Positions 32,738-42,626 of a stretch of 42,626 nucleotides of DNA are shown here, piece after piece. The stretch lies in the IMG/VR virus record IMGVR_UViG_3300002301_000031, positions 1 to 42,626 of that record; one strand, given 5' to 3'. The translations under genes and the position numbers were made by a program. Below the pieces are notes generated by a model. The model was given only the letters and a program-made list of their open reading frames with translations, did no database searches and was not told the DNA's origin. Position 1 is the first letter of the stretch; every line of letters starts with the position of its first letter. Source of the DNA: a virus. Lineage: Duplodnaviria; Caudoviricetes.

Positions 32738-34051
32738 ATGACCGTTCAAATTCTTAATGGCGATTGCCGCGATGTGTTAAAAACCTTACCTGACAATAGC
32801 GTTGACAGCATTGTTACCGATCCACCATATGAACTTGGATTTATGGGCAAAAGTTGGGATGCCAGTGGCATTGCATATAATACGGATATGTGGCGTGAAG
32901 CATTGCGTGTATTAAAGCCAGGCGGTCATATGTTGGCATTTAGTGGATCACGTACATATCATCGCATGACTGTTGCAATTGAAGATGCTGGTTTTGAAAT
33001 TCGTGACCAGATCATGTGGGTTTATGGTCAAGGATTTCCAAAGAACCATGATGTTAGCAAAGCGATTGATAAAGCTGCTGGTGCTAAAAGAAAAGTATTA
33101 GAAACCAAAACTACCAAAAGTGGCGGCATGGCTCATATTATGAAAACTAATAGCGAGCAAGGATATCGCCCTAATGATTATTACGAAGATAGTGGCAATG
33201 TCATTGAAGTAACAGAACCAGCAACTTTAGAAGCAAAGCAGTGGGCTGGATGGGGTACGGCGCTTAAACCTTCTCATGAACCAATCTGTGTCGCTCGCAA
33301 GCCGTTGGAAGGCACTATTGCACAGAATGTCTTAGAACATGGTACTGGTGCGTTGAATATTGACGCAAGCAGAGTTGGCGAAGGTGGAAAGAAATGGGTT
33401 ACTCCTCGTGGTGGTATTTGGGCAACCGATACCGAAGCAAAGGCAGAACTCGTTGATAATCCATTAGGTCGTTGGCCAGCAAATCTTATTCACGATGGCA
33501 GTGAAGAAGTAGTAGAACTATTTCCAACTGCAAAATCTGGTAGTGGAAATGGAGATGCTAAAAGCGGAGTGTCGGGTGATATAACTCCGCTTCGGCGTGG
33601 AACTCTTATACCAAGACATGATAGCGGAAGTGCCGCACGTTTCTTCTATTGTGCAAAGGCAAGCAAGTCCGACCGTAATGCTGGATTAGATGAGTTTGAA
33701 GAAAAACCAGTAGTTACATTCGCTACAGCGAATGGAACGAGTGGTAAGGCAAGTAGCATTAGTGAAGGTCGTAATACTGCTTATAAGAATACACATCCTA
33801 CTGTAAAACCAACTGACCTTATGCGTTATCTAGTTAAGATGGTAACGCCACCAGGTGGAACTACGCTTGATCCGTTTATGGGTTCAGGTTCTACTGGTCG
33901 TGGAGCAATGTTAGAAGGATTTAACTTTATCGGTATTGAAATGACTGATGAATATATTCCAATTGCCACTGCCAGAATTGAAGATGCAAAACAAGAATAC
34001 GAAAAGAAAAATAATGTTGCATTTAATAAACTATTTGAGGAAGAAGAATAA
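32738..34051 (+). CDS. Beta-class N6/N4 DNA methyltransferase 1
   Basis: DPPY motif IV near the N-terminus; HPTVKP and LDPFMGSGSTG motif I near the C-terminus; TTGACT promoter at 32683. Confidence 0.93.
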   Translation: MTVQILNGDCRDVLKTLPDNSVDSIVTDPPYELGFMGKSWDASGIAYNTDMWREALRVLKPGGHMLAFSGSRTYHRMTVAIEDAGFEIRDQIMWVYGQGFPKNHDVSKAIDKAAGAKRKVLETKTTKSGGMAHIMKTNSEQGYRPNDYYEDSGNVIEVTEPATLEAKQWAGWGTALKPSHEPICVARKPLEGTIAQNVLEHGTGALNIDASRVGEGGKKWVTPRGGIWATDTEAKAELVDNPLGRWPANLIHDGSEEVVELFPTAKSGSGNGDAKSGVSGDITPLRRGTLIPRHDSGSAARFFYCAKASKSDRNAGLDEFEEKPVVTFATANGTSGKASSISEGRNTAYKNTHPTVKPTDLMRYLVKMVTPPGGTTLDPFMGSGSTGRGAMLEGFNFIGIEMTDEYIPIATARIEDAKQEYEKKNNVAFNKLFEEEE

Positions 34052-35001
34052 TGACTGTTCAAATTCTTAATGGCGATTGCCGCGATGTACTAAAAACGCT
34101 GCCTGATGAAAGCATTAACATGTGCGTTACATCACCGCCTTATTTTGGTTTGCGAGATTATGGCGGACAAGAAAAACAAATTGGTTTAGAACAAACACCA
34201 GAAGAATATATCCAACAGCTTGTTGAAGTATTCCGTGAAGTGCGCAGAACGCTTAAAGATGACGGCACACTTTGGGTAAACATTGGCGATTCATATTACA
34301 ACTATCGTAGTGGCACAGCATTTGTAAAACAAAGTGTTGCCAAAACAAATCAAGACTTGCCAACTCATAGTCCAAGTCGCAATAATAAATTAGAGGGTCT
34401 TAAAAGCAAAGACCTTATTGGTATTCCGTGGATGTTGGCATTTGCGTTACGTGCCGATGGTTGGTATTTGCGTCAAGATATTATTTGGCACAAGCCCAAT
34501 CCTATGCCAGAGTCAGTAAAAGATCGTTGCACAAAAGCACACGAATATATTTTCTTGTTGAGTAAGAGCAAGAATTATTATTTTGATTATGAAGCAATTA
34601 AAGAACCTGCACAGAACTGGGGAACCAGAGATCGTAGCAATTTTCGCAGTGGAACCGAAGACCCATTGTTAAAACAGCATGGCCTTAAAGGAAAAGAATG
34701 GGAAGAAAATCCAACAAGAAACAAACGCTCTGTATGGACTGTTAATACTAAGCCATATAAAGAAGCGCATTTTGCGACATTTCCAACTGAATTGATTGAA
34801 CCTTGCATTTTGGCAGGTTCTCCAAAGGGCGGCATGGTGCTTGATCCGTTCGGTGGTTCGGGAACAACAGGTTATCTTAGTGATAAGTTAGGACGCAATG
34901 CAACTTTAATTGAACTTAATCCATCATACATTGATATTGCAGAAAATCGCATTGATCCGCCAGAAAAACGCCTTGACTCAAATTTATTTGAATTTGAGTA
35001 A
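34051..35001 (+). CDS. Beta-class N4/N6 DNA methyltransferase 2
   Basis: TSPPY; IIW.KPNPMPESV.DR; HFATFP; LDPFGGSGTT. Confidence 0.93.
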   Translation: MTVQILNGDCRDVLKTLPDESINMCVTSPPYFGLRDYGGQEKQIGLEQTPEEYIQQLVEVFREVRRTLKDDGTLWVNIGDSYYNYRSGTAFVKQSVAKTNQDLPTHSPSRNNKLEGLKSKDLIGIPWMLAFALRADGWYLRQDIIWHKPNPMPESVKDRCTKAHEYIFLLSKSKNYYFDYEAIKEPAQNWGTRDRSNFRSGTEDPLLKQHGLKGKEWEENPTRNKRSVWTVNTKPYKEAHFATFPTELIEPCILAGSPKGGMVLDPFGGSGTTGYLSDKLGRNATLIELNPSYIDIAENRIDPPEKRLDSNLFEFE

Positions 35002-35062: not shown

Positions 35063-35992
35063 ATGCTATCTAGGCTATTCGTAGTTGCAGCAGCAACGAT
35101 TATTGGTACAGCAGCTTATGCTGCTGAAATTACAGGAGCAGGCGCTACCTTCCCATTTCCAATCTATGCAAAGTGGGCCGATTCTTATAAGAAAGTTTCA
35201 GGCAATACTTTAAATTATCAATCAATTGGCAGTGGCGCAGGCATTAAGCAAATTGAAGCCAAGACAGTTACATTTGGCGCAACTGATATTCCAGTAAAAC
35301 CAGAAGACCTAGAAAAGAAAGGTCAAGTTCAGTTTCCAATGATTGTTGGCGGAATTGTACCAATTGTTAATATAAAAGAAGTAACGGATAATCAGTTAGT
35401 ATTGAATACTGATATCATTGCCAAAATCTATATGGAAAAGATTAAGAATTGGAATGATAAAGAAATTGCAGCACTTAATCCAACATTGAAACTTCCTGAT
35501 CTTCCAATTATCAAGGTTCGTCGTAGTGATGGTAGTGGAACAACTTGGAACTTTACAAGATTCTTATCAGAAGCAAATGCTGATTGGAAGAAAGATTATA
35601 ATTTTGGTCAAAGCATTGAATGGGCTGGCAGTGCAATCGGCGCAAAGGGCAATGATGGCGTAGCAAATAATGTTTCAGTTGCAAATGGTTCAATCGGTTA
35701 TGTTGAATATGCGTTTGCCAAGTCAAACAATCTTACAACCGCAAAGATGATTGGCAGCGATGGCAAGCCAGTTGCTCCTAGCTTGAAAGCATTTCAGTCT
35801 ACTTGGCCAATGGTTGCTACTTCTTATATCGTAATGTACAAGACACCTGATGACAAGACAGCTTCTAAGGATGCTATCAAGTTCTTTGAATATGCGCTTG
35901 CGCATGACAAGGATGCCGAAGAATTGGATTATGTACCCCTAACTGCTGCTCAAAAGAGCGATGTAAAAAAAGTTTGGGAAACTATAAAATAA
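35063..35992 (+). CDS. pstS: Phosphate ABC transporter periplasmic binding protein
   Basis: Signal peptide; GAGATFP.P.Y.KW, NYQSIGSGAG, FGATD, RSDGSGTT, GNDGVA, IGYVE. Confidence 0.95.
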   Translation: MLSRLFVVAAATIIGTAAYAAEITGAGATFPFPIYAKWADSYKKVSGNTLNYQSIGSGAGIKQIEAKTVTFGATDIPVKPEDLEKKGQVQFPMIVGGIVPIVNIKEVTDNQLVLNTDIIAKIYMEKIKNWNDKEIAALNPTLKLPDLPIIKVRRSDGSGTTWNFTRFLSEANADWKKDYNFGQSIEWAGSAIGAKGNDGVANNVSVANGSIGYVEYAFAKSNNLTTAKMIGSDGKPVAPSLKAFQSTWPMVATSYIVMYKTPDDKTASKDAIKFFEYALAHDKDAEELDYVPLTAAQKSDVKKVWETIK

Positions 35993-36027
35993 TTCTTGAC
36001 ATAATAGGTCAATAGATGTATAAAGAG

Positions 36028-36061
36028 AAGGTGAGAGGGAAAAACCCTTTCACCTTTTTTT
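36028..36061 (+). terminator. Intrinsic terminator after pstS
   Basis: AAGGTGAGAGGG/CCCTTTCACCTT stem plus T-run. Confidence 0.8.
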
Positions 36062-36087
36062 ATTTTTAAAAAAGATAAAAAAAGTTC

Positions 36088-36117
36088 TTGACAAATATTT
36101 TTTATCGTGTATAAATA
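36088..36117 (+). promoter_or_regulatory. Promoter heading the tRNA region (sigma70 -35 plus overlapping TATAAATA late motif)
   Basis: TTGACA 36088-36093; TATAAATA 36110-36117. Confidence 0.75.
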
Positions 36118-36139
36118 GAATTACAAATTGAGAGCAACT

Positions 36140-36220
36140 ATGTCTAACACGCCTAAACACAATGATTATAACATTTGCCGCATGCCAGAAGGTTTCTGGA
36201 TTGAGGGGGCGTGTGCCTAA
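36140..36220 (+). CDS. Putative attenuator leader peptide MSNTPKHNDYNICRMPEGFWIEGACA (26 aa)
   Basis: First ATG after the promoter, GAGAG 5 nt upstream, ends 29 nt before a terminator; overlaps alternative stems. Confidence 0.7.
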   Translation: MSNTPKHNDYNICRMPEGFWIEGACA

Positions 36221-36248
36221 TGTGATCGCACATTAGAGTATGCACTTA

Positions 36249-36280
36249 GCCCCTGAAACGAAAGTTTCGGGGGTTTTTTT
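36249..36280 (+). terminator. Attenuator-type intrinsic terminator
   Basis: GCCCCTGAAAC-GAAA-GTTTCGGGGGT, 11 bp, with a 7-T tract. Confidence 0.88.
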
Positions 36281-36386
36281 ATTTCGGGATGTTGCTCCCC
36301 ACGCATAAGAGCAACCCTTGACTAGTACTGGCTCCAAATGGACGCAGGTGGTTTCAGCAAGGCATTGAAACAATGAAAGTTGTTTC

Positions 36387-36498
36387 TAAATGAGCATCAT
36401 AGCCAGTTGCAACTGGTCCAGTGGATGGGATAGGAGTCTTGTGACTCCAAAGACGGTTCGACTCCGTTAGGGACTGATCAACCCATGATGTTCTTTTA
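36387..36498 (+). ncRNA. Structured RNA 1 with T-arm mimic
   Basis: Closing stem 36387-36400/36485-36498 (13 of 14 pairs); internal hairpins; ACGG-TTCGACT-CCGT. Confidence 0.6.
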
Positions 36499-36518
36499 GA
36501 AGCAATGAAAGTTGTTTC

Positions 36519-36666
36519 GCTTATACAAGAGACTAATAGTGCGGAGTAATTAACCGAAACTATAAACAGATAGTCTGGTGAGAAGGTGCGTCAGGTCGCT
36601 ACGATTGTGGTGGACGGCAATCTGAGGTTGGGTTCGATTCCCATGGTTTGTGTATCTTGTATAAGC
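36519..36666 (+). ncRNA. Structured RNA 2 with T-arm mimic
   Basis: Perfect 12-bp closing stem GCTTATACAAGA/TCTTGTATAAGC; TGGG-TTCGATT-CCCA. Confidence 0.6.
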
Positions 36667-36681
36667 GCAACAACTTTTTAC

Positions 36682-36755
36682 ATCACCGTGGCGTAATGGT
36701 AGCGTAAGGGTCTCCAAAACCTTTGGTCTGGGTTCAAATCCTAGCGGTGGTGCCA
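36682..36755 (+). tRNA. tRNA-Trp(CCA)
   Basis: Cloverleaf; loop CT-CCA-AA; encoded CCA. Confidence 0.92.
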
Positions 36756-36832
36756 ATTATGTCAAAAAATTGACAGTTGACAAACTCTAAATCTGTGTTA
36801 TATTAGTAATATAAGCAGTTTAGGAGAAATTC

Positions 36833-37465
36833 ATGCGCAAGATTGCCTTATTTTCCCATCATCCACAGTGCTCACGCGACTGTGTAAATGGTATGATTTC
36901 CGCTCTCAGCGGCGCATATGATGTAGAGACTTTTCGGGTAGACGATGACTTTGGCGCTATCTTGGGTTCCGCTGATATCGTCGCCTTTCCTGGCGGTATC
37001 GGTGACAGCATGTCATTTGACTATCTGCTTGGCGACAAGGTAGAGATGATCCAAGACTTTGTTGCTAATGGCGGTAAGTATCTTGGCATCTGCATGGGCG
37101 CATACTGGGCTGGCAGCCACTATTTCAATCTGCTTGATGGTGTAGATGCTGTTCAGTATATCAAGCGTCCTACTGCCGATATTGCTCGTCCTTATGGCAC
37201 GGTCGCAGATGTTACATGGAACGGCAAGCGTGACTCTATGTACTTCTATGATGGCTGTGCATTGGTAGGCAACAAGCGTAAGTTTGAAACCGTTGCTGCC
37301 TATGCTAACGGCGATGCTATGGCTATCAAGCAAGGCAATGTAGGTATCATTGGTTGTCATCCTGAGAGCCAACAATACTGGTATGATACATGGCAGTATA
37401 TGCCAGATTACTGGCATGGCGGTCGTCATCATGCAATGTTGCGTGAGTTCGTAGATAAATTATAA
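36833..37465 (+). CDS. Class I glutamine amidotransferase-like (BPL_N-type) protein
   Basis: FPGG, GG.YLGICMGAY nucleophile elbow, GCHPE; TTGACA at 36777. Confidence 0.85.
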   Translation: MRKIALFSHHPQCSRDCVNGMISALSGAYDVETFRVDDDFGAILGSADIVAFPGGIGDSMSFDYLLGDKVEMIQDFVANGGKYLGICMGAYWAGSHYFNLLDGVDAVQYIKRPTADIARPYGTVADVTWNGKRDSMYFYDGCALVGNKRKFETVAAYANGDAMAIKQGNVGIIGCHPESQQYWYDTWQYMPDYWHGGRHHAMLREFVDKL

Positions 37466-37479
37466 TTGGATAGTAAATT

Positions 37480-38103
37480 ATGAAAATAGATAATAACTTT
37501 GTTTTTTTGTTGTTTACTCCTGGTGTGGGTGGAAATCATTTAACAAATTTATTATCTATTTCTTTAAATATTTTTGCAAATCTTCCAGACAATAAAGAAG
37601 ATATTATTAATAGCTATACAACACCAGAAGTAAATTTTAATAGACATAATTTTCGGAAAGAAAATTTTAAAAAAATAATATCAAATAATAAAAAACAAAA
37701 CGATATTATAGTATGTGGGCATTTTTCAGAATATCTATCTTTAGAAAATTTTCTTACAAAAATTATTAAAAATAAAAAATTTATATCCATAACTGAATTA
37801 GATGAAGAATCTATTGGAAAATTAAAAAACAGACTTAAGTTTATTGGAAATATTTACAACGTAATAGAAAACGAATATTATTTGCATGAACAAAGATTAA
37901 TATACAGTTCGCATAATTTGTCTAAATTATTAGATTGTAAAAAAGAAGATATCGTAGAAGTAAAATTAAATGATCTGTTGTCTGAAAATATTATTCCAGT
38001 TTTAAACAAAATAGGCAATAATTTGGGATACACTGAATTTAGTTGTTTAGAATTTTGTCAAGAACTTCATACTATTTGGTTAAAAAACAATAATATAATT
38101 TAA
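37480..38103 (+). CDS. AT-rich protein, P-loop/sulfotransferase-like N-terminus
   Basis: F.PG.GGNHL..LLS; function weakly inferred. Confidence 0.5.
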   Translation: MKIDNNFVFLLFTPGVGGNHLTNLLSISLNIFANLPDNKEDIINSYTTPEVNFNRHNFRKENFKKIISNNKKQNDIIVCGHFSEYLSLENFLTKIIKNKKFISITELDEESIGKLKNRLKFIGNIYNVIENEYYLHEQRLIYSSHNLSKLLDCKKEDIVEVKLNDLLSENIIPVLNKIGNNLGYTEFSCLEFCQELHTIWLKNNNII

Positions 38104-38107
38104 CTAT

Positions 38108-38185
38108 GGGGAAGTGTGCGCGGAATGGTTACGCCAAGGTCTGCAAAACCTTTTTATGTGGGTTCAAGTCCCATCTTCCCCTCCA
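38108..38185 (+). tRNA. tRNA-Cys(GCA)
   Basis: AAGGT-CTGCAAA-ACCTT; U73; CCA. Confidence 0.92.
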
Positions 38186-38193
38186 ACTTTTGT

Positions 38194-38269
38194 GCAAAGT
38201 TAGCAAATGTGGTCATTGCACTGGACTGAAAATCCAGCCAACTTGGTTCGATCCCAAGACTTTGCACCA
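38194..38269 (+). tRNA. tRNA-Phe(GAA)
   Basis: CTGGA-CTGAAAA-TCCAG; CCA. Confidence 0.9.
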
Positions 38270-38289
38270 TTTTTATTAAAGGAAATGCA

Positions 38290-38541
38290 ATGATAGAAGC
38301 AGCATTAGTATTTTTGTCAATGTTTGTGGTTGATATCTTTTATGCGATTTATCTTAAAAGCATTGAAAATAACAAACCATTACATGCATCATCAATGGCG
38401 ACTATCGTTTTCTTCATTGCAAGTATTGCAACGATTGGTTACGTAGATAATCACTGGTTATTAATTCCTGCGTGTTTAGGTGCGTTTGCAGGAACTTGGG
38501 TTGGTGTAAAATATAACATTAAAAAAGGAAAAAACAAGTGA
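38290..38541 (+). CDS. Small multi-pass membrane protein
   Basis: Three hydrophobic segments; GAFAGTWVG; AAGGA RBS. Confidence 0.75.
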   Translation: MIEAALVFLSMFVVDIFYAIYLKSIENNKPLHASSMATIVFFIASIATIGYVDNHWLLIPACLGAFAGTWVGVKYNIKKGKNK

Positions 38542-38779
38542 AACGGGACTGTATCTAGAAACAAAAGATGGACGCATCGTCAATATTACAGTTTATGTAA
38601 TGGGCGGTCTGCATACTTTAACAAAGACATACACCATATATTATGAAGAGGCAGTGGGCGGTTTTCCCGATTTACATAATTGGTGGTTTTTCAAAGAAGT
38701 AAAAGACGAACCTGATGGTCTATACTATGATAAACGAAGCTACTTTATTGAAATAAAAACAAAAGGCTCCATCTTATAA
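38538..38779 (+). pseudogene. Frame-disrupted ORF (would read MKTGLYLETKDGRIV...)
   Basis: GTGA-coupled start is out of frame with an 80-codon open frame from 38540 to TAA at 38779. Confidence 0.35.
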
Positions 38780-38839
38780 TGGCTATTATCCTTGACTGTC
38801 TATCAGGGGATAGGGGTTCGATTCCCCTTGGAGTCGCCA
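38765..38839 (+). tRNA. tRNA-Asp(GTC)
   Basis: CTTGA-CTGTCTA-TCAGG; G73; CCA. Confidence 0.92.
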
Positions 38840-38851
38840 ACACAATTTAAT

Positions 38852-38913
38852 GCTGGGGTTTGCATGGGTGCTTTAACTAACAACCATAGGGTTCGATTCC
38901 CTACCCCCGCTCA
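38852..38913 (+). ncRNA. Truncated tRNA-like element
   Basis: Acceptor-like stem (6 of 7 pairs) and perfect T-arm TAGGG-TTCGATT-CCCTA; no proper anticodon arm; ends TCA. Confidence 0.55.
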
Positions 38914-38921
38914 ATTATAAT

Positions 38922-38998
38922 CCGCCCATAGATAACGCTGGCTATATCACCACCCTTTCAAGGTGAAGTAACGGGATCGACACCCGTTGGGCGGACCA
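38922..38998 (+). tRNA. tRNA-Glu(TTC)
   Basis: CACC-CTTTCAA-GGTG; CCA. Confidence 0.9.
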
Positions 38999-39064
38999 AT
39001 AAACTTTTAGTTGACAATATTTTATAATATGGTACAGTTAAAGTTATGTGAAGGAGTAATACAC

Positions 39065-39586
39065 ATGACGTTAGAAGAGTTTGCTGTATTTTCTGAAATT
39101 GCAAAACCAATTTTAGAAGCGGCGCGAAATGATATTGATTATTATGCTGGTACTATCTATGAAGGTTTTTTAGAATTACCTAATACTGTTCGTGGAAGTA
39201 TTGGTGAAAATATTGTAAGTGCTGATATGGCAAGTCGCGGTCACATAATTAAAGATCGCACTAGCGCAGGTCATGATCGTATTATTGATGGCATTAAAAC
39301 TGAAATCAAACATGGCATCCAAGGCAAAGGCAATCCAGACAGTCATATTATTAATCATATAAGTGCTGACAAAGATTGGGATCGTTTAGTATTTTATGGC
39401 GTAAACCGTCCTCTAGAAAATATGCGACGGATTTGGTTTACCAAAGAAGATTTTTTAGCGAACATTAACAGCGGCATTTTTCGCAGACAACAAGGTGGCG
39501 CAGATTTAGAAAATGATGATTATATGTGTAGTAAAACTCCCTTATTGTTGAACCAACCATGGGTTCATGATATAAGTGAATGGTAA
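39065..39586 (+). CDS. PD-(D/E)XK restriction-like endonuclease
   Basis: GSIGE helix, HDRII, TEIK; own TTGACA (39011) and AAGGAG RBS. Confidence 0.65.
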   Translation: MTLEEFAVFSEIAKPILEAARNDIDYYAGTIYEGFLELPNTVRGSIGENIVSADMASRGHIIKDRTSAGHDRIIDGIKTEIKHGIQGKGNPDSHIINHISADKDWDRLVFYGVNRPLENMRRIWFTKEDFLANINSGIFRRQQGGADLENDDYMCSKTPLLLNQPWVHDISEW

Positions 39587-39589
39587 TAT

Positions 39590-39664
39590 TGGCGTGTAAC
39601 TCAGAGGTAGAGTACAGTCCTGATAAGACTGGAGTCGTTGGTTCAATTCCAACCATGCCAACCA
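39590..39664 (+). tRNA. tRNA-Ile(GAT)
   Basis: CAGTC-CTGATAA-GACTG; CCA. Confidence 0.93.
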
Positions 39665-39670
39665 ATTAAT

Positions 39671-39746
39671 ACCCAAGTAGCACAGCGGTAGTGGCAACGC
39701 TCTCATAAGGCGTGGGTCGTTGGTTCAAATCCAACCTTGGGTACCA
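39671..39746 (+). tRNA. tRNA with CAT anticodon (elongator Met or Ile2)
   Basis: ACGCT-CTCATAA-GGCGT; CCA; identity not resolvable by eye. Confidence 0.88.
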
Positions 39747-39751
39747 ATTAT

Positions 39752-39827
39752 TGGGGAATAGTTCAGTTGGTAGAACGCAACACTCTGAATGTTGATGTCC
39801 GAGGTTCGAGTCCTTGTTCCCCAACCA
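39752..39827 (+). tRNA. tRNA-Gln(CTG)
   Basis: CAACA-CTCTGAA-TGTTG; CCA. Confidence 0.92.
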
Positions 39828-39834
39828 AATTCGT

Positions 39835-39910
39835 GGACCGTTAACTCAGTTGGTAGAGTAGGGGACTCTTAATCCTTTTGTCGGGGGTTCAAATCCCTCA
39901 CGGTCTACCA
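39835..39910 (+). tRNA. tRNA-Lys(CTT)
   Basis: GGGGA-CTCTTAA-TCCTT; CCA. Confidence 0.92.
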
Positions 39911-39921
39911 TTAAATACAGT

Positions 39922-40380
39922 ATGAAGAAAATAGTTTTAATTTGTCTGCTATTAGCAGGTTGTAACTCTCTTGAACCACAAAGCATTGGCGTTGTAGGAA
40001 CAGGTTTATCTCATCATTTGAAAGAAAGATCAAGTCCGCCATATAATGAAACTAATAGTGGTTTGGGAGTAAGATTAAATCTTGACAACGATACTGCTAT
40101 TCAAGGTGGGTTTTTTGATAACAGTTATAACAAACAAAGCAATTATGCTATCATAGATTATTCACCATATAAGTTACTAAAACAAAATGATTGCGGTAAC
40201 ATGGATGTGGGTGGATTTTTAGGAGCAGCAACTGGATATAAAGCATACACAGTGCCAGTTGGCGGTATACAGGGCGCGATTCATTGTGGTGATTTTTATG
40301 TACGCACAAGAGTAACACCAGCACCAGTTGCAGGCGCAGTATTATCCGTTGAAGTAGGTTATACCGTTTTTAAATTTTAA
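39922..40380 (+). CDS. Lipoprotein-signal outer-membrane beta-barrel, PagP-like
   Basis: Lipobox LLAGC; SHH...YNETN.GLG, F.NSY; terminal F. Confidence 0.6.
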   Translation: MKKIVLICLLLAGCNSLEPQSIGVVGTGLSHHLKERSSPPYNETNSGLGVRLNLDNDTAIQGGFFDNSYNKQSNYAIIDYSPYKLLKQNDCGNMDVGGFLGAATGYKAYTVPVGGIQGAIHCGDFYVRTRVTPAPVAGAVLSVEVGYTVFKF

Positions 40381-40381
40381 T

Positions 40382-40456
40382 GTTCTCTTGGTGAAATGGA
40401 TATCACCGAAGTCTACGAAACTTCAGTTCCAAGTTCGAATCTTGGGGAGAACGCCA
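40382..40456 (+). tRNA. tRNA-Arg(ACG)
   Basis: GAAGT-CTACGAA-ACTTC; CCA. Confidence 0.92.
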
Positions 40457-40461
40457 ATTTG

Positions 40462-40623
40462 TTAAGGGCGACCTTGACCACGATATGCTTTAACAGAACG
40501 ACGAACGCTTTTATTTTTAGGGCGACTGGCTTTTGCATTACCAATACTAGTGCGTTTATTGACGCTGCTTTTCTTGAAAGTAACCTTTGCTGCGCCATTT
40601 GCGCCGCCTTTTGCTTTAGCCAT
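40462..40623 (-). CDS. 53-aa basic protein ending KAYRGQGRP
   Basis: Hand-translated; GGAG RBS and TAAATA upstream; YRGQG terminus recalled from small T4-like phage proteins. Confidence 0.8.
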   Translation of the reverse strand: MAKAKGGANGAAKVTFKKSSVNKRTSIGNAKASRPKNKSVRRSVKAYRGQGRP

Positions 40624-40676
40624 AATTGATTCTCCCTAAAGAAATATTTAGTGTTTTTTATATCAATAAGTATCGT

Positions 40677-42236
40677 ATGCGTGTAAAATTCATAGTATCT
40701 CCTGATTATAATTTCAGAGGCAGAATTGTTAATCCAGCTTATTGGTTTCTAAGATCATATTACAAATTCAGTAGTAAAAATTATGACAAGATTACATGGC
40801 TAGATGCGCATTTTCAATTTTTAACTGATAACGATGCAATGATTAATACTATCATTGAAGAGAAAGTTGATGTATTATGCATGAGTATCTATATTTGGAA
40901 TCGTGAACAATATCTTACAATCGCAAAAAAAGTTAAAGAATTAAATCCAAATATTATAATAATTGCAGGCGGTCCTGAATTAGATGCTTATAAAAATCCA
41001 GATTTTTGGAATGAAAATTCTCAATTAGATTATGTAGTTTATGGCGATGGAGAATTTGCTTTTAAAGTTTTACTTGATCATTTAGTAGATGGTACATCAT
41101 TAGAAGATGCTGTAAACATTGTAACTAAAGAAAAAATATACCCATTTAAAATTTTTACCGATAAAGAATTTTCCAAGATAAGTCCATGGCTAGAAATGGA
41201 AGATGATATCATGCGAGTGATAAAAGAAGCCAATGGCGAAACATTATTGTTTAATTGGGAAATGAGCAGAGGATGTCCATATTCTTGCAGTTTCTGCGAT
41301 TGGAGTAGCGGATTACATAATAAAGTTAAACGCCGAAAGGGAAATTGGCGCGAAGAAATAGATTTATTTGCAAAAATAAATGTCAATGTTGGAATTATTG
41401 ATGCAAATTGGGGGCAGTTTCCAGAAGATATTGAAATTCATCAATATGCTGTTGATAAATTAGGTGATAAACTATGGACTCAAAATTTTAGTAAACTTAA
41501 TAAAAAAACAGTTTATGAAATGATAAAGATTCAAGGGCGTGGAAGAGAAAGTACATTTAAAACAAATATATCATTGCAAGATATTAATCCAGAAGTTTTA
41601 AAAAACATTGATAGACCAGAAGTTCCATGGGAAGAACATAGAAAATTTATAATTGAATTATTAGAAAATAATCCAAATATACAAGCAACCCCAGAATTAA
41701 TAGTTGGTTTACCAGGACAAACACCAGATTCTTTTATGAATACGATAACTGAATTGCATGATATCGGAGTAAGTCGCATTACTCATCATGGATGGGTTTT
41801 GTTAACAAATAGTCCAGCAAATAATATTGAATACCAAGAAAAACATAAAATTAAAATAGAAAATTTAATTTGGTTAGCAAATACTATATTTCCAGATAGA
41901 CAATCAGCATTGGTATCTGCAAACAATAAAGATAATAAAACTTTTATAGCAAAAACAATAGTTGGAACATATTCATGTGATCTAGCAGATATTTTAACTA
42001 TGCATAGTTTTGCTGGATTATATAACAGCATAATGCATTTCAATCCAAAGTTAAATCCGTTAAAAATAATTAACAGAAATAGACAACGAATAATTGACAT
42101 GAGTAATCAACATGCAGAAATCATGAATAATGATAAAATATTTGGCATTGAAAATTATACTGGTTTCGTAGATTATAAAAATCTATGGGAATATTATGAT
42201 AAAAATAACTTTAATAGAATGTTAAAAGATATATAA
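40677..42236 (+). CDS. Cobalamin-binding radical SAM protein
   Basis: S.YIWN...A...K...P...I..GGP B12 domain, GDGE, RGCPYSCSFC, DANWG, ELIVGLPG.T; start moved to MRVKF. Confidence 0.9.
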   Translation: MRVKFIVSPDYNFRGRIVNPAYWFLRSYYKFSSKNYDKITWLDAHFQFLTDNDAMINTIIEEKVDVLCMSIYIWNREQYLTIAKKVKELNPNIIIIAGGPELDAYKNPDFWNENSQLDYVVYGDGEFAFKVLLDHLVDGTSLEDAVNIVTKEKIYPFKIFTDKEFSKISPWLEMEDDIMRVIKEANGETLLFNWEMSRGCPYSCSFCDWSSGLHNKVKRRKGNWREEIDLFAKINVNVGIIDANWGQFPEDIEIHQYAVDKLGDKLWTQNFSKLNKKTVYEMIKIQGRGRESTFKTNISLQDINPEVLKNIDRPEVPWEEHRKFIIELLENNPNIQATPELIVGLPGQTPDSFMNTITELHDIGVSRITHHGWVLLTNSPANNIEYQEKHKIKIENLIWLANTIFPDRQSALVSANNKDNKTFIAKTIVGTYSCDLADILTMHSFAGLYNSIMHFNPKLNPLKIINRNRQRIIDMSNQHAEIMNNDKIFGIENYTGFVDYKNLWEYYDKNNFNRMLKDI

Positions 42237-42243
42237 TAATGAT

Positions 42244-42317
42244 GCGGCTATGATGTAGAGGTAACCTGCTTCGTTGCCAACGAAGATTCGCCAGTTCGAT
42301 TCTGGCTAGCCGCTCCA
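42244..42317 (+). tRNA. tRNA-Gly(GCC)
   Basis: CTTCG-TTGCCAA-CGAAG; U73; CCA. Confidence 0.92.
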
Positions 42318-42365
42318 ATTTTTTTCATTGACAATCTGCAAAATCATGTTATATTAATAATATGA

Positions 42366-42440
42366 GCCGTCTAAGTGTTAAAGGTTGCACACGAGTTTGT
42401 GGCACTCGTAGAACTGGATCGATACCAGTAGACGGTACCA
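42366..42440 (+). tRNA. tRNA-His(GTG), alphaproteobacterial type
   Basis: CGAGT-TTGTGGC-ACTCG; G1:U72, A73, A at -1; TTGACA at 42328. Confidence 0.9.
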
Positions 42441-42487
42441 AAAATAATGCTTGACAAAAGAATATAATATGCTATTATAACAATATT

Positions 42488-42575
42488 GGGACGGCTGCTC
42501 AGACGGCGGATGGGCGGCGGGCTGTAAACCCGTTACATAGAAACGGAGTAGGTTCGAATCCTACCCGTCCCACCA
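42488..42575 (+). tRNA. tRNA-Tyr(GTA)
   Basis: GCGGG-CTGTAAA-CCCGT; long variable arm; CCA; TTGACA at 42451. Confidence 0.92.
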
Positions 42576-42583
42576 AAATTTAT

Positions 42584-42626
42584 TGCGGGGTAGAGAAGTG
42601 GTCATCTCGCCAGTCTCATAAACTGG
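42584..42626 (+). tRNA. tRNA-Met(CAT), partial at the window end
   Basis: TGCGGGG 5' end; CCAGT-CTCATAA-ACTGG. Confidence 0.8.

Follow-up and report, generated by a model that had tools for sequence, protein, structure and literature searches.

A predicted leader-peptide attenuator that samples many amino acids ahead of a phage tRNA array

A short open reading frame (ORF) at positions 36140–36220 is probably the leader of an attenuator, in which, to judge from a folding model, delay at any of some 16 decoding steps would raise transcription of the small-RNA and tRNA region behind it. In the proposed mechanism, a ribosome delayed at any of codons 2–20 would leave an RNA segment (segment 2) free to capture the 5′ arm of an intrinsic terminator, and transcription would continue into the small-RNA and tRNA region; a ribosome that has moved past Trp20 would cover segment 2, and the terminator would form. 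The trigger may be any sampled tRNA that has been lost, cleaved or undercharged, or elongation that has slowed. On the sequences compared, the conserved trait is the set of amino acids, with roughly one codon for each, and not their order. Two ideas had been combined in the initial annotation of this DNA. That of a broad multi-amino-acid sampler is upheld, by 16 amino acids in 19 codons, by raised diversity in 40 leader families and by retention of the set in a diverged orthologue (L210); that of a dedicated module for Lys and the queuosine-family codons is not, the run in question being lost in L210 and NAY codons occurring at chance level in the 40 families.

The leader and its surroundings

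The window, by which we mean the whole stretch of DNA analysed, covers 42.6 kb of the genome of a large myovirus-like phage and includes terminase, tail sheath, tail tube and head–tail genes; its terminase is ~52% identical to those of PA5oct and Atu_ph07. One member of the clade, G001, is a complete genome of 338 kb and carries a two-piece tmRNA, which we take as a hint of an alphaproteobacterial host. Upstream of the leader lie two tandem DNA methyltransferase genes with identical N-termini (32738–35001) and a gene for a PstS-like phosphate-binding protein (35063–35992), from which the leader would be insulated by a predicted terminator-like hairpin (36023–36061, plus strand). On the other side, a BPL_N/GATase-like protein is encoded at 36833–37465, and a B12-binding radical SAM enzyme at 40626–42236, within the tRNA array.

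The conserved ORF, with its start signals, sits between a promoter-like site and the terminator. The former, TTGACA-14-TG-TATAAATA (36088–36117, plus strand), is presumably a sigma-70-like −35 element joined to a T4-late-type box; TATAAATA is present in all 20 clade variants, and the box also occurs upstream of the tail tube gene (8985, minus strand). A weak ribosome-binding-site-like GAGAG (36130–36134, plus strand) follows, with GAGAG or GAGAA 5′ of the start throughout the clade alignment. Translation of 36140–36220 (plus strand) gives MSNTPKHNDYNICRMPEGFWIEGACA, that is, 26 codons and a TAA stop, and bears out the initial reading of 17 amino acids without Leu, Val or Gln. Equally correct was the placing of K-H-N-D-Y-N at codons 6–11 (AAA CAC AAT GAT TAT AAC; 36155–36172, plus strand), where AAA and then five NAY codons directly follow pairing segment 1 (36147–36154). 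An alternative frame from 36162 varies in length (19–25 codons) and is not conserved.

Alternative RNA structures

The leader region folds far better than its shuffles (z −5.4), and segment 2 (36205–36216) can pair either back with segment 1 or forward with the 5′ arm of the terminator, all on the plus strand. Helix 1:2 (36147–36214) joins 36147–36154 to 36207–36214 around a hairpin at 36185–36199; seven of its eight pairs are present in 20/20 variants and the remaining pair in 19/20, with one-sided changes only. The predicted antiterminator (36205–36254) joins 36205–36210 to 36249–36254 around a stop-codon hairpin (36217–36236); all six of its pairs are found in every one of the 20 variants, and the hairpin that it encloses shows one A-U to G-C double change (7/20 variants). 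The intrinsic terminator (36248–36280) has 12 pairs and a T run, all 12 pairs being kept in 20/20 variants, with two one-sided U-G/A-U changes. The antiterminator and terminator are predicted to be mutually exclusive and overlap the end of the ORF, and the constancy of their pairs comes with little double-sided covariation. Only a weak hairpin is predicted at the NAY run, so that a strong hairpin as its cause is no more than a guess. Rfam returned nothing above cut-off for the leader, His_leader being sub-threshold (18.7 bits against a cut-off of 49).

In full-length equilibrium folding, the terminator wins at every ribosome position among those listed and no switch is visible; any switch must therefore be kinetic. 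In a cut-transcript model, in which the RNA ends before the last G run of the terminator and the ribosome is an unpaired block, the antiterminator has a probability of ~0.9 or more with any of codons 2–20 in the A site, in 20/20 variants; past Trp20 it is mostly at most 0.1, and up to 0.4 in L210 (20/20 variants). The predicted sensing window, codons 2–20 (36143–36199, plus strand), was thus set by folding and not from amino-acid counts; it holds 16 amino acids and ends in an invariant Trp. Its edge shifts by one codon with the size of the ribosome footprint. If the RNA behind the ribosome is left free to re-pair and two more G residues are added, codons 15–18 lose the antiterminator in many variants, and codons 2–14, the NAY run included, would be left to sense. 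The ribosome-free state is unstable in the model: the antiterminator is at least 0.6 in 18/20 variants at one cut point and ranges from 0.01 to 0.98 at another. The switch is a product of this fold model, and the leader is presumed to be translated.

Amino-acid composition of the leader

Over the whole ORF, 17 amino acids in 26 codons is weakly unusual (P = 0.031 against 10,300 phage protein windows, 0.040 with phage codon usage, 0.079 with base shuffles and 0.10 with a uniform null). For the 19 codons of the sensing window, 16 amino acids give P values of 0.002, 0.003, 0.004 and 0.011 under the same four nulls. Ala, Val and Gln are missing from codons 2–20 (P ~0.03), and no control codons are repeated in the leader. 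The absence of Gln, which the initial annotation had pointed out, is confirmed, though the array in the window holds a tRNA-Gln(CTG).

Variants of the leader within the clade

Scans by terminator, neighbouring gene, promoter–terminator spacing and the pattern of codons 15–20 yielded 20 distinct full variants, including that of the window, after three cut-off hits and one unrelated hairpin had been dropped. The 19 other than L210 are close kin and not independent. Seven variants came from the codon-pattern scan alone, which fixes codons 15–20. The frame is open in 20/20 variants, indels within the ORF are of 3 bases and synonymous changes are present. Trp closes the sensing window in all 20. 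The single-copy residues K6, H7, D9, C13, R14, E17, F19 and W20 undergo synonymous changes only (19/19); the positions of duplicated residues (2, 8, 11, 12 and 15) vary, as do codons 21–22, just beyond the sensing window. K-H-(N/Y)-D-Y is found in 19/20 variants, with codon 8 switching among AAY and TAY only, and the fifth NAY codon (codon 11) is Ile or Met in 9/19.

In L210, codons 5–21 are rewritten and the tRNA order downstream is the same as in the window. No two NAY codons are adjacent and the K-H-N-D-Y run is lost, so that a homologous leader without the run, named in the initial annotation as a finding that would speak against the module, does exist. Yet L210 retains, in new order, 13 of the 14 amino acids of window codons 5–20, as against a mean of 6.8 in phage windows (P = 1e-4, a lower bound, the stretch being still partly alignable). 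On these sequences, L210 is the best evidence for selection on the amino-acid set.

A search with the segment-2/terminator pattern gave five clade matches and no new variant in the 120 of ~560 stretches listed. Distant blastn of 36060–36760 against 50,697 cultured phage records gave no leader match among the best 40 of 258 records, the matches there being to tRNA-Trp or weak and A/T-rich.

Leaders ahead of other phage tRNA genes

Four promoter–terminator scans, three of which took in 120 stretches of ~1000, 270 and 350, respectively, provided, among the matches listed, 77 distinct ones that are followed by a tRNA and 117 that have none in at least 3 kb; short-flank matches without a tRNA and matches with a tRNA inside were left out. 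A short ORF ending 48–85 bases before the end of the match, a slot chosen after the tRNA-linked cases had been seen, is present in 71/77 tRNA-linked and 19/117 tRNA-free matches, again among those listed. The diversity check proposed in the initial annotation came out in its favour: when the leaders are clustered, the 40 tRNA-linked families have a mean of 16.9 amino acids, where base shuffles predict 15.0 (32/40 above expectation, p 6e-6), and the 17 control families have 13.0 against 13.1 expected (tRNA-linked versus control, p 0.0014). Some tRNA-linked families are not diverse (10–13 amino acids). Trp is the most enriched residue, present in 31 families against 12.8 expected (2.3-fold), and His, Asp and Tyr are fewer than expected.

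Leader codons also match the anticodons of the array behind them, another relation that the initial annotation had suggested looking for. In 17 families with at least seven tRNAs in view, the fraction of leader codons read by the family's own array is 0.528 against 0.459 on permutation (p 5e-5; at most 4e-4 on leaving out any one family), and 12 small arrays give p 0.0014; the arrays were taken to 4–6 kb, and kinship and host codon usage are still in this signal.

A leader and terminator precede tRNAs in three of five cultured relatives examined, namely, Atu_ph07, Phosso and Vibrio phage 2.275.O, in which NAY codons number 6/41, 5/53 and 2/30, respectively. These leader ORFs look unannotated (L146 in Atu_ph07, start ~339246, minus strand; L148 in Phosso, ~419754; L153 in Vibrio phage 2.275.O, ~167571), and cultured phages with leaders before tRNA blocks are usable test systems. 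No such leader was seen by eye in the 700 bases before the PA5oct array, and none was found by script in GAP32. Separately, tRNAs with anticodon CTA (amber suppressor-like) occur in regions of the cultured jumbo phages Phosso and GAP32 (L149, 12731; L151, 7273). A further family, L053 (with L026, L038, L045, L088, L093, L112, L117 and L138), has a low-diversity, Thr/Gln-rich leader with a W-C/P-P-x-G-M-S end and a tRNA 3–30 bases behind the terminator, a logic unlike the broad type.

Small RNAs and tRNA genes downstream

The first element behind the terminator is a conserved two-hairpin RNA of ~80 bases with an invariant AGUAC bulge (36286–36362, plus strand), found in 19/19 clade loci searched; 9 of its 22 pairs show double changes over 12 sequences. 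Two long-stemmed tRNA-like RNAs follow on the same strand (36380–36510 and 36511–36676; z −5.7 and −4.2), and are patchy, being present in two and one of 19 relatives, respectively. Rfam gave no match above cut-off for the small RNAs. The tRNA-like RNAs resemble, as we take it, bacterial Y-like RNAs; a Y-RNA/repair-operon reading was dropped, RtcB being found in 0/4 genomes and TROVE/Ro60 in 0/3.

The array itself (36682–42626, plus strand) comprises tRNAs for Trp, Cys, Phe, Asp, Glu, Ile, Met, Gln, Lys (CTT), Arg, Gly, His and Tyr, and a second tRNA-Met cut by the contig end; in all, 13 typed tRNA genes and one tRNA-like element lie 3′ of the leader on its strand. Promoter-like sites within the array lie at 36777, 39011, 42328 and 42451, and tRNA-His and tRNA-Tyr have promoter-like sites of their own. 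By pattern matches only, such a site lies 0.18–0.84 kb behind the terminator in 8/8 loci, and in 5/8 one immediately precedes tRNA-His and/or tRNA-Tyr. From the attenuator to the distal tRNAs no strong terminator-like site was found, only weak ones near 40506–40565 and 41781. Given the internal promoter-like sites, read-through would add to the tRNA supply and not be its sole source; control of the array as a whole by the attenuator may be confined to late infection, if TATAAATA promoters alone are active then.

The claim that the leader codons are readable by the downstream tRNAs stands for the 11 residues named, H, D, Y, I, C, R, M, E, G (GGT), F and W, but 11/19 sensing codons, set against a background of 0.43, gives P 0.14–0.20. 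The G001 array reads 12/19 (P 0.36), and three other clade arrays read 16–18/19 (P 0.02–0.10). The reported Lys mismatch is real as far as the window goes (leader AAA, visible anticodon CTT), but probably arises because the contig stops short: relatives including L009, L012, L014, L015, L018 and G001 carry a tRNA-Lys(TTT) at a more distal point of the array, and arrays of relatives that extend further have Lys(TTT), Asn(GTT) and, in most cases, Thr, Ser and Pro. Within the clade, tRNAs are lost from the arrays and the leader persists. In the complete genome of G001, no match was found for tRNA-His, -Tyr, -Phe or -Pro, and its leader keeps codons for all four residues, along with the H-N-D-Y run; the Ala, Val and Gln tRNAs of that genome are encoded away from the array.

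Two tRNAs may be recorded here in their own right. The tRNA-Gln(CTG) of the window (39752–39827) is absent from 19 related loci, and a Gln(TTG) lies outside the G001 array. A tRNA-Thr with anticodon AGT (A34) is present in L009, L012, L015, L018 and G001 (e.g. L012, 13414–13488), a type rare in bacteria.

Alternative explanations

The Lys codon and NAY run could form a dedicated module, by which cleavage of the tRNAs for Lys, His, Asn, Asp and Tyr, or a want of queuosine, would call up replacement tRNAs; we regard this as improbable. A run of five NAY codons is rare for this leader taken alone (P 0.001–0.008; 0.015 after correction for nine codon classes; 0.024 with only codons 6–15 shuffled), it occupies the part of the sensing window most robust to the choice of model, and it survives as K-H-(N/Y)-D-Y, with codon 8 confined to AAY and TAY, in all variants but L210. 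The nuclease targets named in the initial annotation are also right, as far as the available portions of the papers go: ColE5 targets the Tyr, His, Asn and Asp tRNAs (PMC1635277), PrrC tRNA-Lys and retron-Eco7 tRNA-Tyr (PMC11555353), and AriB the Lys, Thr and Asn tRNAs (PMC12409363). Against this, the 19 variants that keep the run are close kin, codon 11 is Ile or Met in nine of them, and L210 lacks the run altogether. The NAY count of the leader (six) is not raised (P 0.09–0.38), nor is there the enrichment that had been predicted for homologous leaders: over the 40 families, NAY codons number 190 against 188.8 expected, runs of at least three occur in four families against 3.2 expected, and a run of at least four only in the family of the window (1/40 against 0.39 expected), the chance of a run of five in any of the 40 being 0.044. 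Lys precedes NAY in 10/55 cases (0.165 expected), and the NAY share is unrelated to the number of GUN tRNAs (rho 0.29, p 0.26, n = 17). G001 keeps the run with no match for tRNA-His or -Tyr, tgt and queC were found in 0/4 genomes searched, G001 among them, and the His and Tyr genes of the window have promoter-like sites of their own. The run is not needed in L210, and neither NAY enrichment nor control of Q genes or GUN tRNAs, as expected of a dedicated NAY sensor, is seen. Nor does the codon family imply queuosine sensing, since ColE5 cuts synthetic minihelices by their YGUN sequence (PMC1635277, in its available portion), and queuosine deficiency would be a poor trigger on logic, because an extra phage tRNA needs the same host Tgt. 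The clustering may be a lineage trait, in which A/U-rich codons fill a weakly paired loop and G/C-rich codons form helices, and Lys, His, Asn, Asp and Tyr would be five members of the sampled set.

The leader might instead be a codon-blind gauge of ribosome speed or transcription–translation coupling, responsive to antibiotics, ribosome damage, starvation or phage takeover, its diversity just avoiding bias towards one amino acid. The predicted sensing window shows a flat response along its 19 codons, the leader does not track tRNA losses in the clade, and the known analogues, in the portions of those reports available, are antibiotic-responsive attenuators; we nevertheless consider this rather unlikely, given that diversity is above that of random, and not merely unbiased, sequence and that leader codons match their own arrays across families. 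There is only a small chance that the attenuator mainly controls the first elements, namely, the 80-base RNA and often tRNA-Trp, and not the whole array. In 8/8 loci the 80-base RNA comes ahead of the first internal promoter-like site, as tRNA-Trp does in 5/8, and Trp both ends the sensing window in 20/20 variants and shows the strongest enrichment of any residue in the 40 families; on the other hand, no strong terminator-like site was found before the distal tRNAs, many other families have a tRNA within 3–300 bases of the terminator, and the codon match involves many tRNAs. That there is no switch at all, but a constitutive terminator or a small RNA whose ORF is incidental or encodes a peptide, we find very hard to credit. 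It would agree with the equilibrium folding, in which the terminator wins, and with the invariance of most pairs and hence the scant covariation; it does not agree with the filling of the ORF slot (71/77 against 19/117, among the matches listed) or with mutually exclusive helices in all variants, and a reshuffled order with a kept set fits neither a folded peptide nor chance.

Relation to known systems

Leader-peptide attenuators of enterobacterial amino-acid operons include thrL, ilvL (ilvGMEDA), trpL, hisL, pheL and leuL, those of thr and ilv being multivalent. Like the latter, the phage leader places a short ORF over alternative 1:2, 2:3 and 3:4 helices and an intrinsic terminator, and a stall is predicted to favour read-through; unlike them, it has ~16 amino acids once each in place of runs of one to three, and phage small RNAs and tRNAs, not biosynthetic enzymes, lie downstream. 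With no tandem control codons, no biosynthetic genes and Rfam leaders below cut-off, it does not group with the amino-acid-operon attenuators. A second likeness is to the bmrCD, msrD and yxjB attenuators, where, according to the available portions of the reports, the position of the ribosome on the leader sets termination and the output protects translation; the phage leader differs in giving no sign of drug-specific arrest motifs and in the conservation of an amino-acid set and tRNA match.

The trn operon (L-array) of Anabaena is induced by translational stress (PMC8421152 and PMC10272220, available portions), and is thus likewise a tRNA array turned on when translation is impaired, but through a plasmid-borne system with a protein repressor, TrcR, whereas the phage leader is a predicted leader-peptide RNA switch; the available part of PMC8421152 mentions neither attenuation nor a leader. 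Phage tRNA counter-defence supplies a reason to raise the tRNA dose: in the portions of PMC11555353 and PMC12409363 available, T5 tRNA-Tyr counters retron-Eco7, phage tRNA-Lys counters PrrC and PARIS, and rescue depended on promoter strength. Strong promoters, not feedback, are described there, with no mention of attenuation or a leader in the available part of PMC11555353, and none of attenuation, leader, promoter or terminator in that of PMC13015707. In the openly accessible articles covered, we found no leader-peptide control of phage tRNA genes.

Biological implications

Cleavage of tRNA is a possible natural trigger of the predicted attenuator. As their targets are in the sampled list, PrrC, AriB, PtuAB or ColE5-like nucleases should also set off a broad sensor, and starvation or slow elongation would do so alike. 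More tentatively, and at rather less than even chances in our estimation, the leader may let giant phages test their own decoding: it would list the tRNAs encoded in the array, report the loss of any of them, whichever host nuclease is responsible, and boost the array during infection. If true, immunity that works by cutting tRNAs would be countered through feedback, in the cultured phages Phosso and Atu_ph07 as well. A queuosine sensor in the narrower sense would have been of a new type, but is not borne out by the comparisons. Phage tRNA arrays may serve codon fit, or may replace tRNAs destroyed by the host; a leader of this kind would be a reporter with which such hypotheses can be tested codon by codon, and if it does sample many tRNAs and control the array, it would show a phage tuning its tRNA supply by need.
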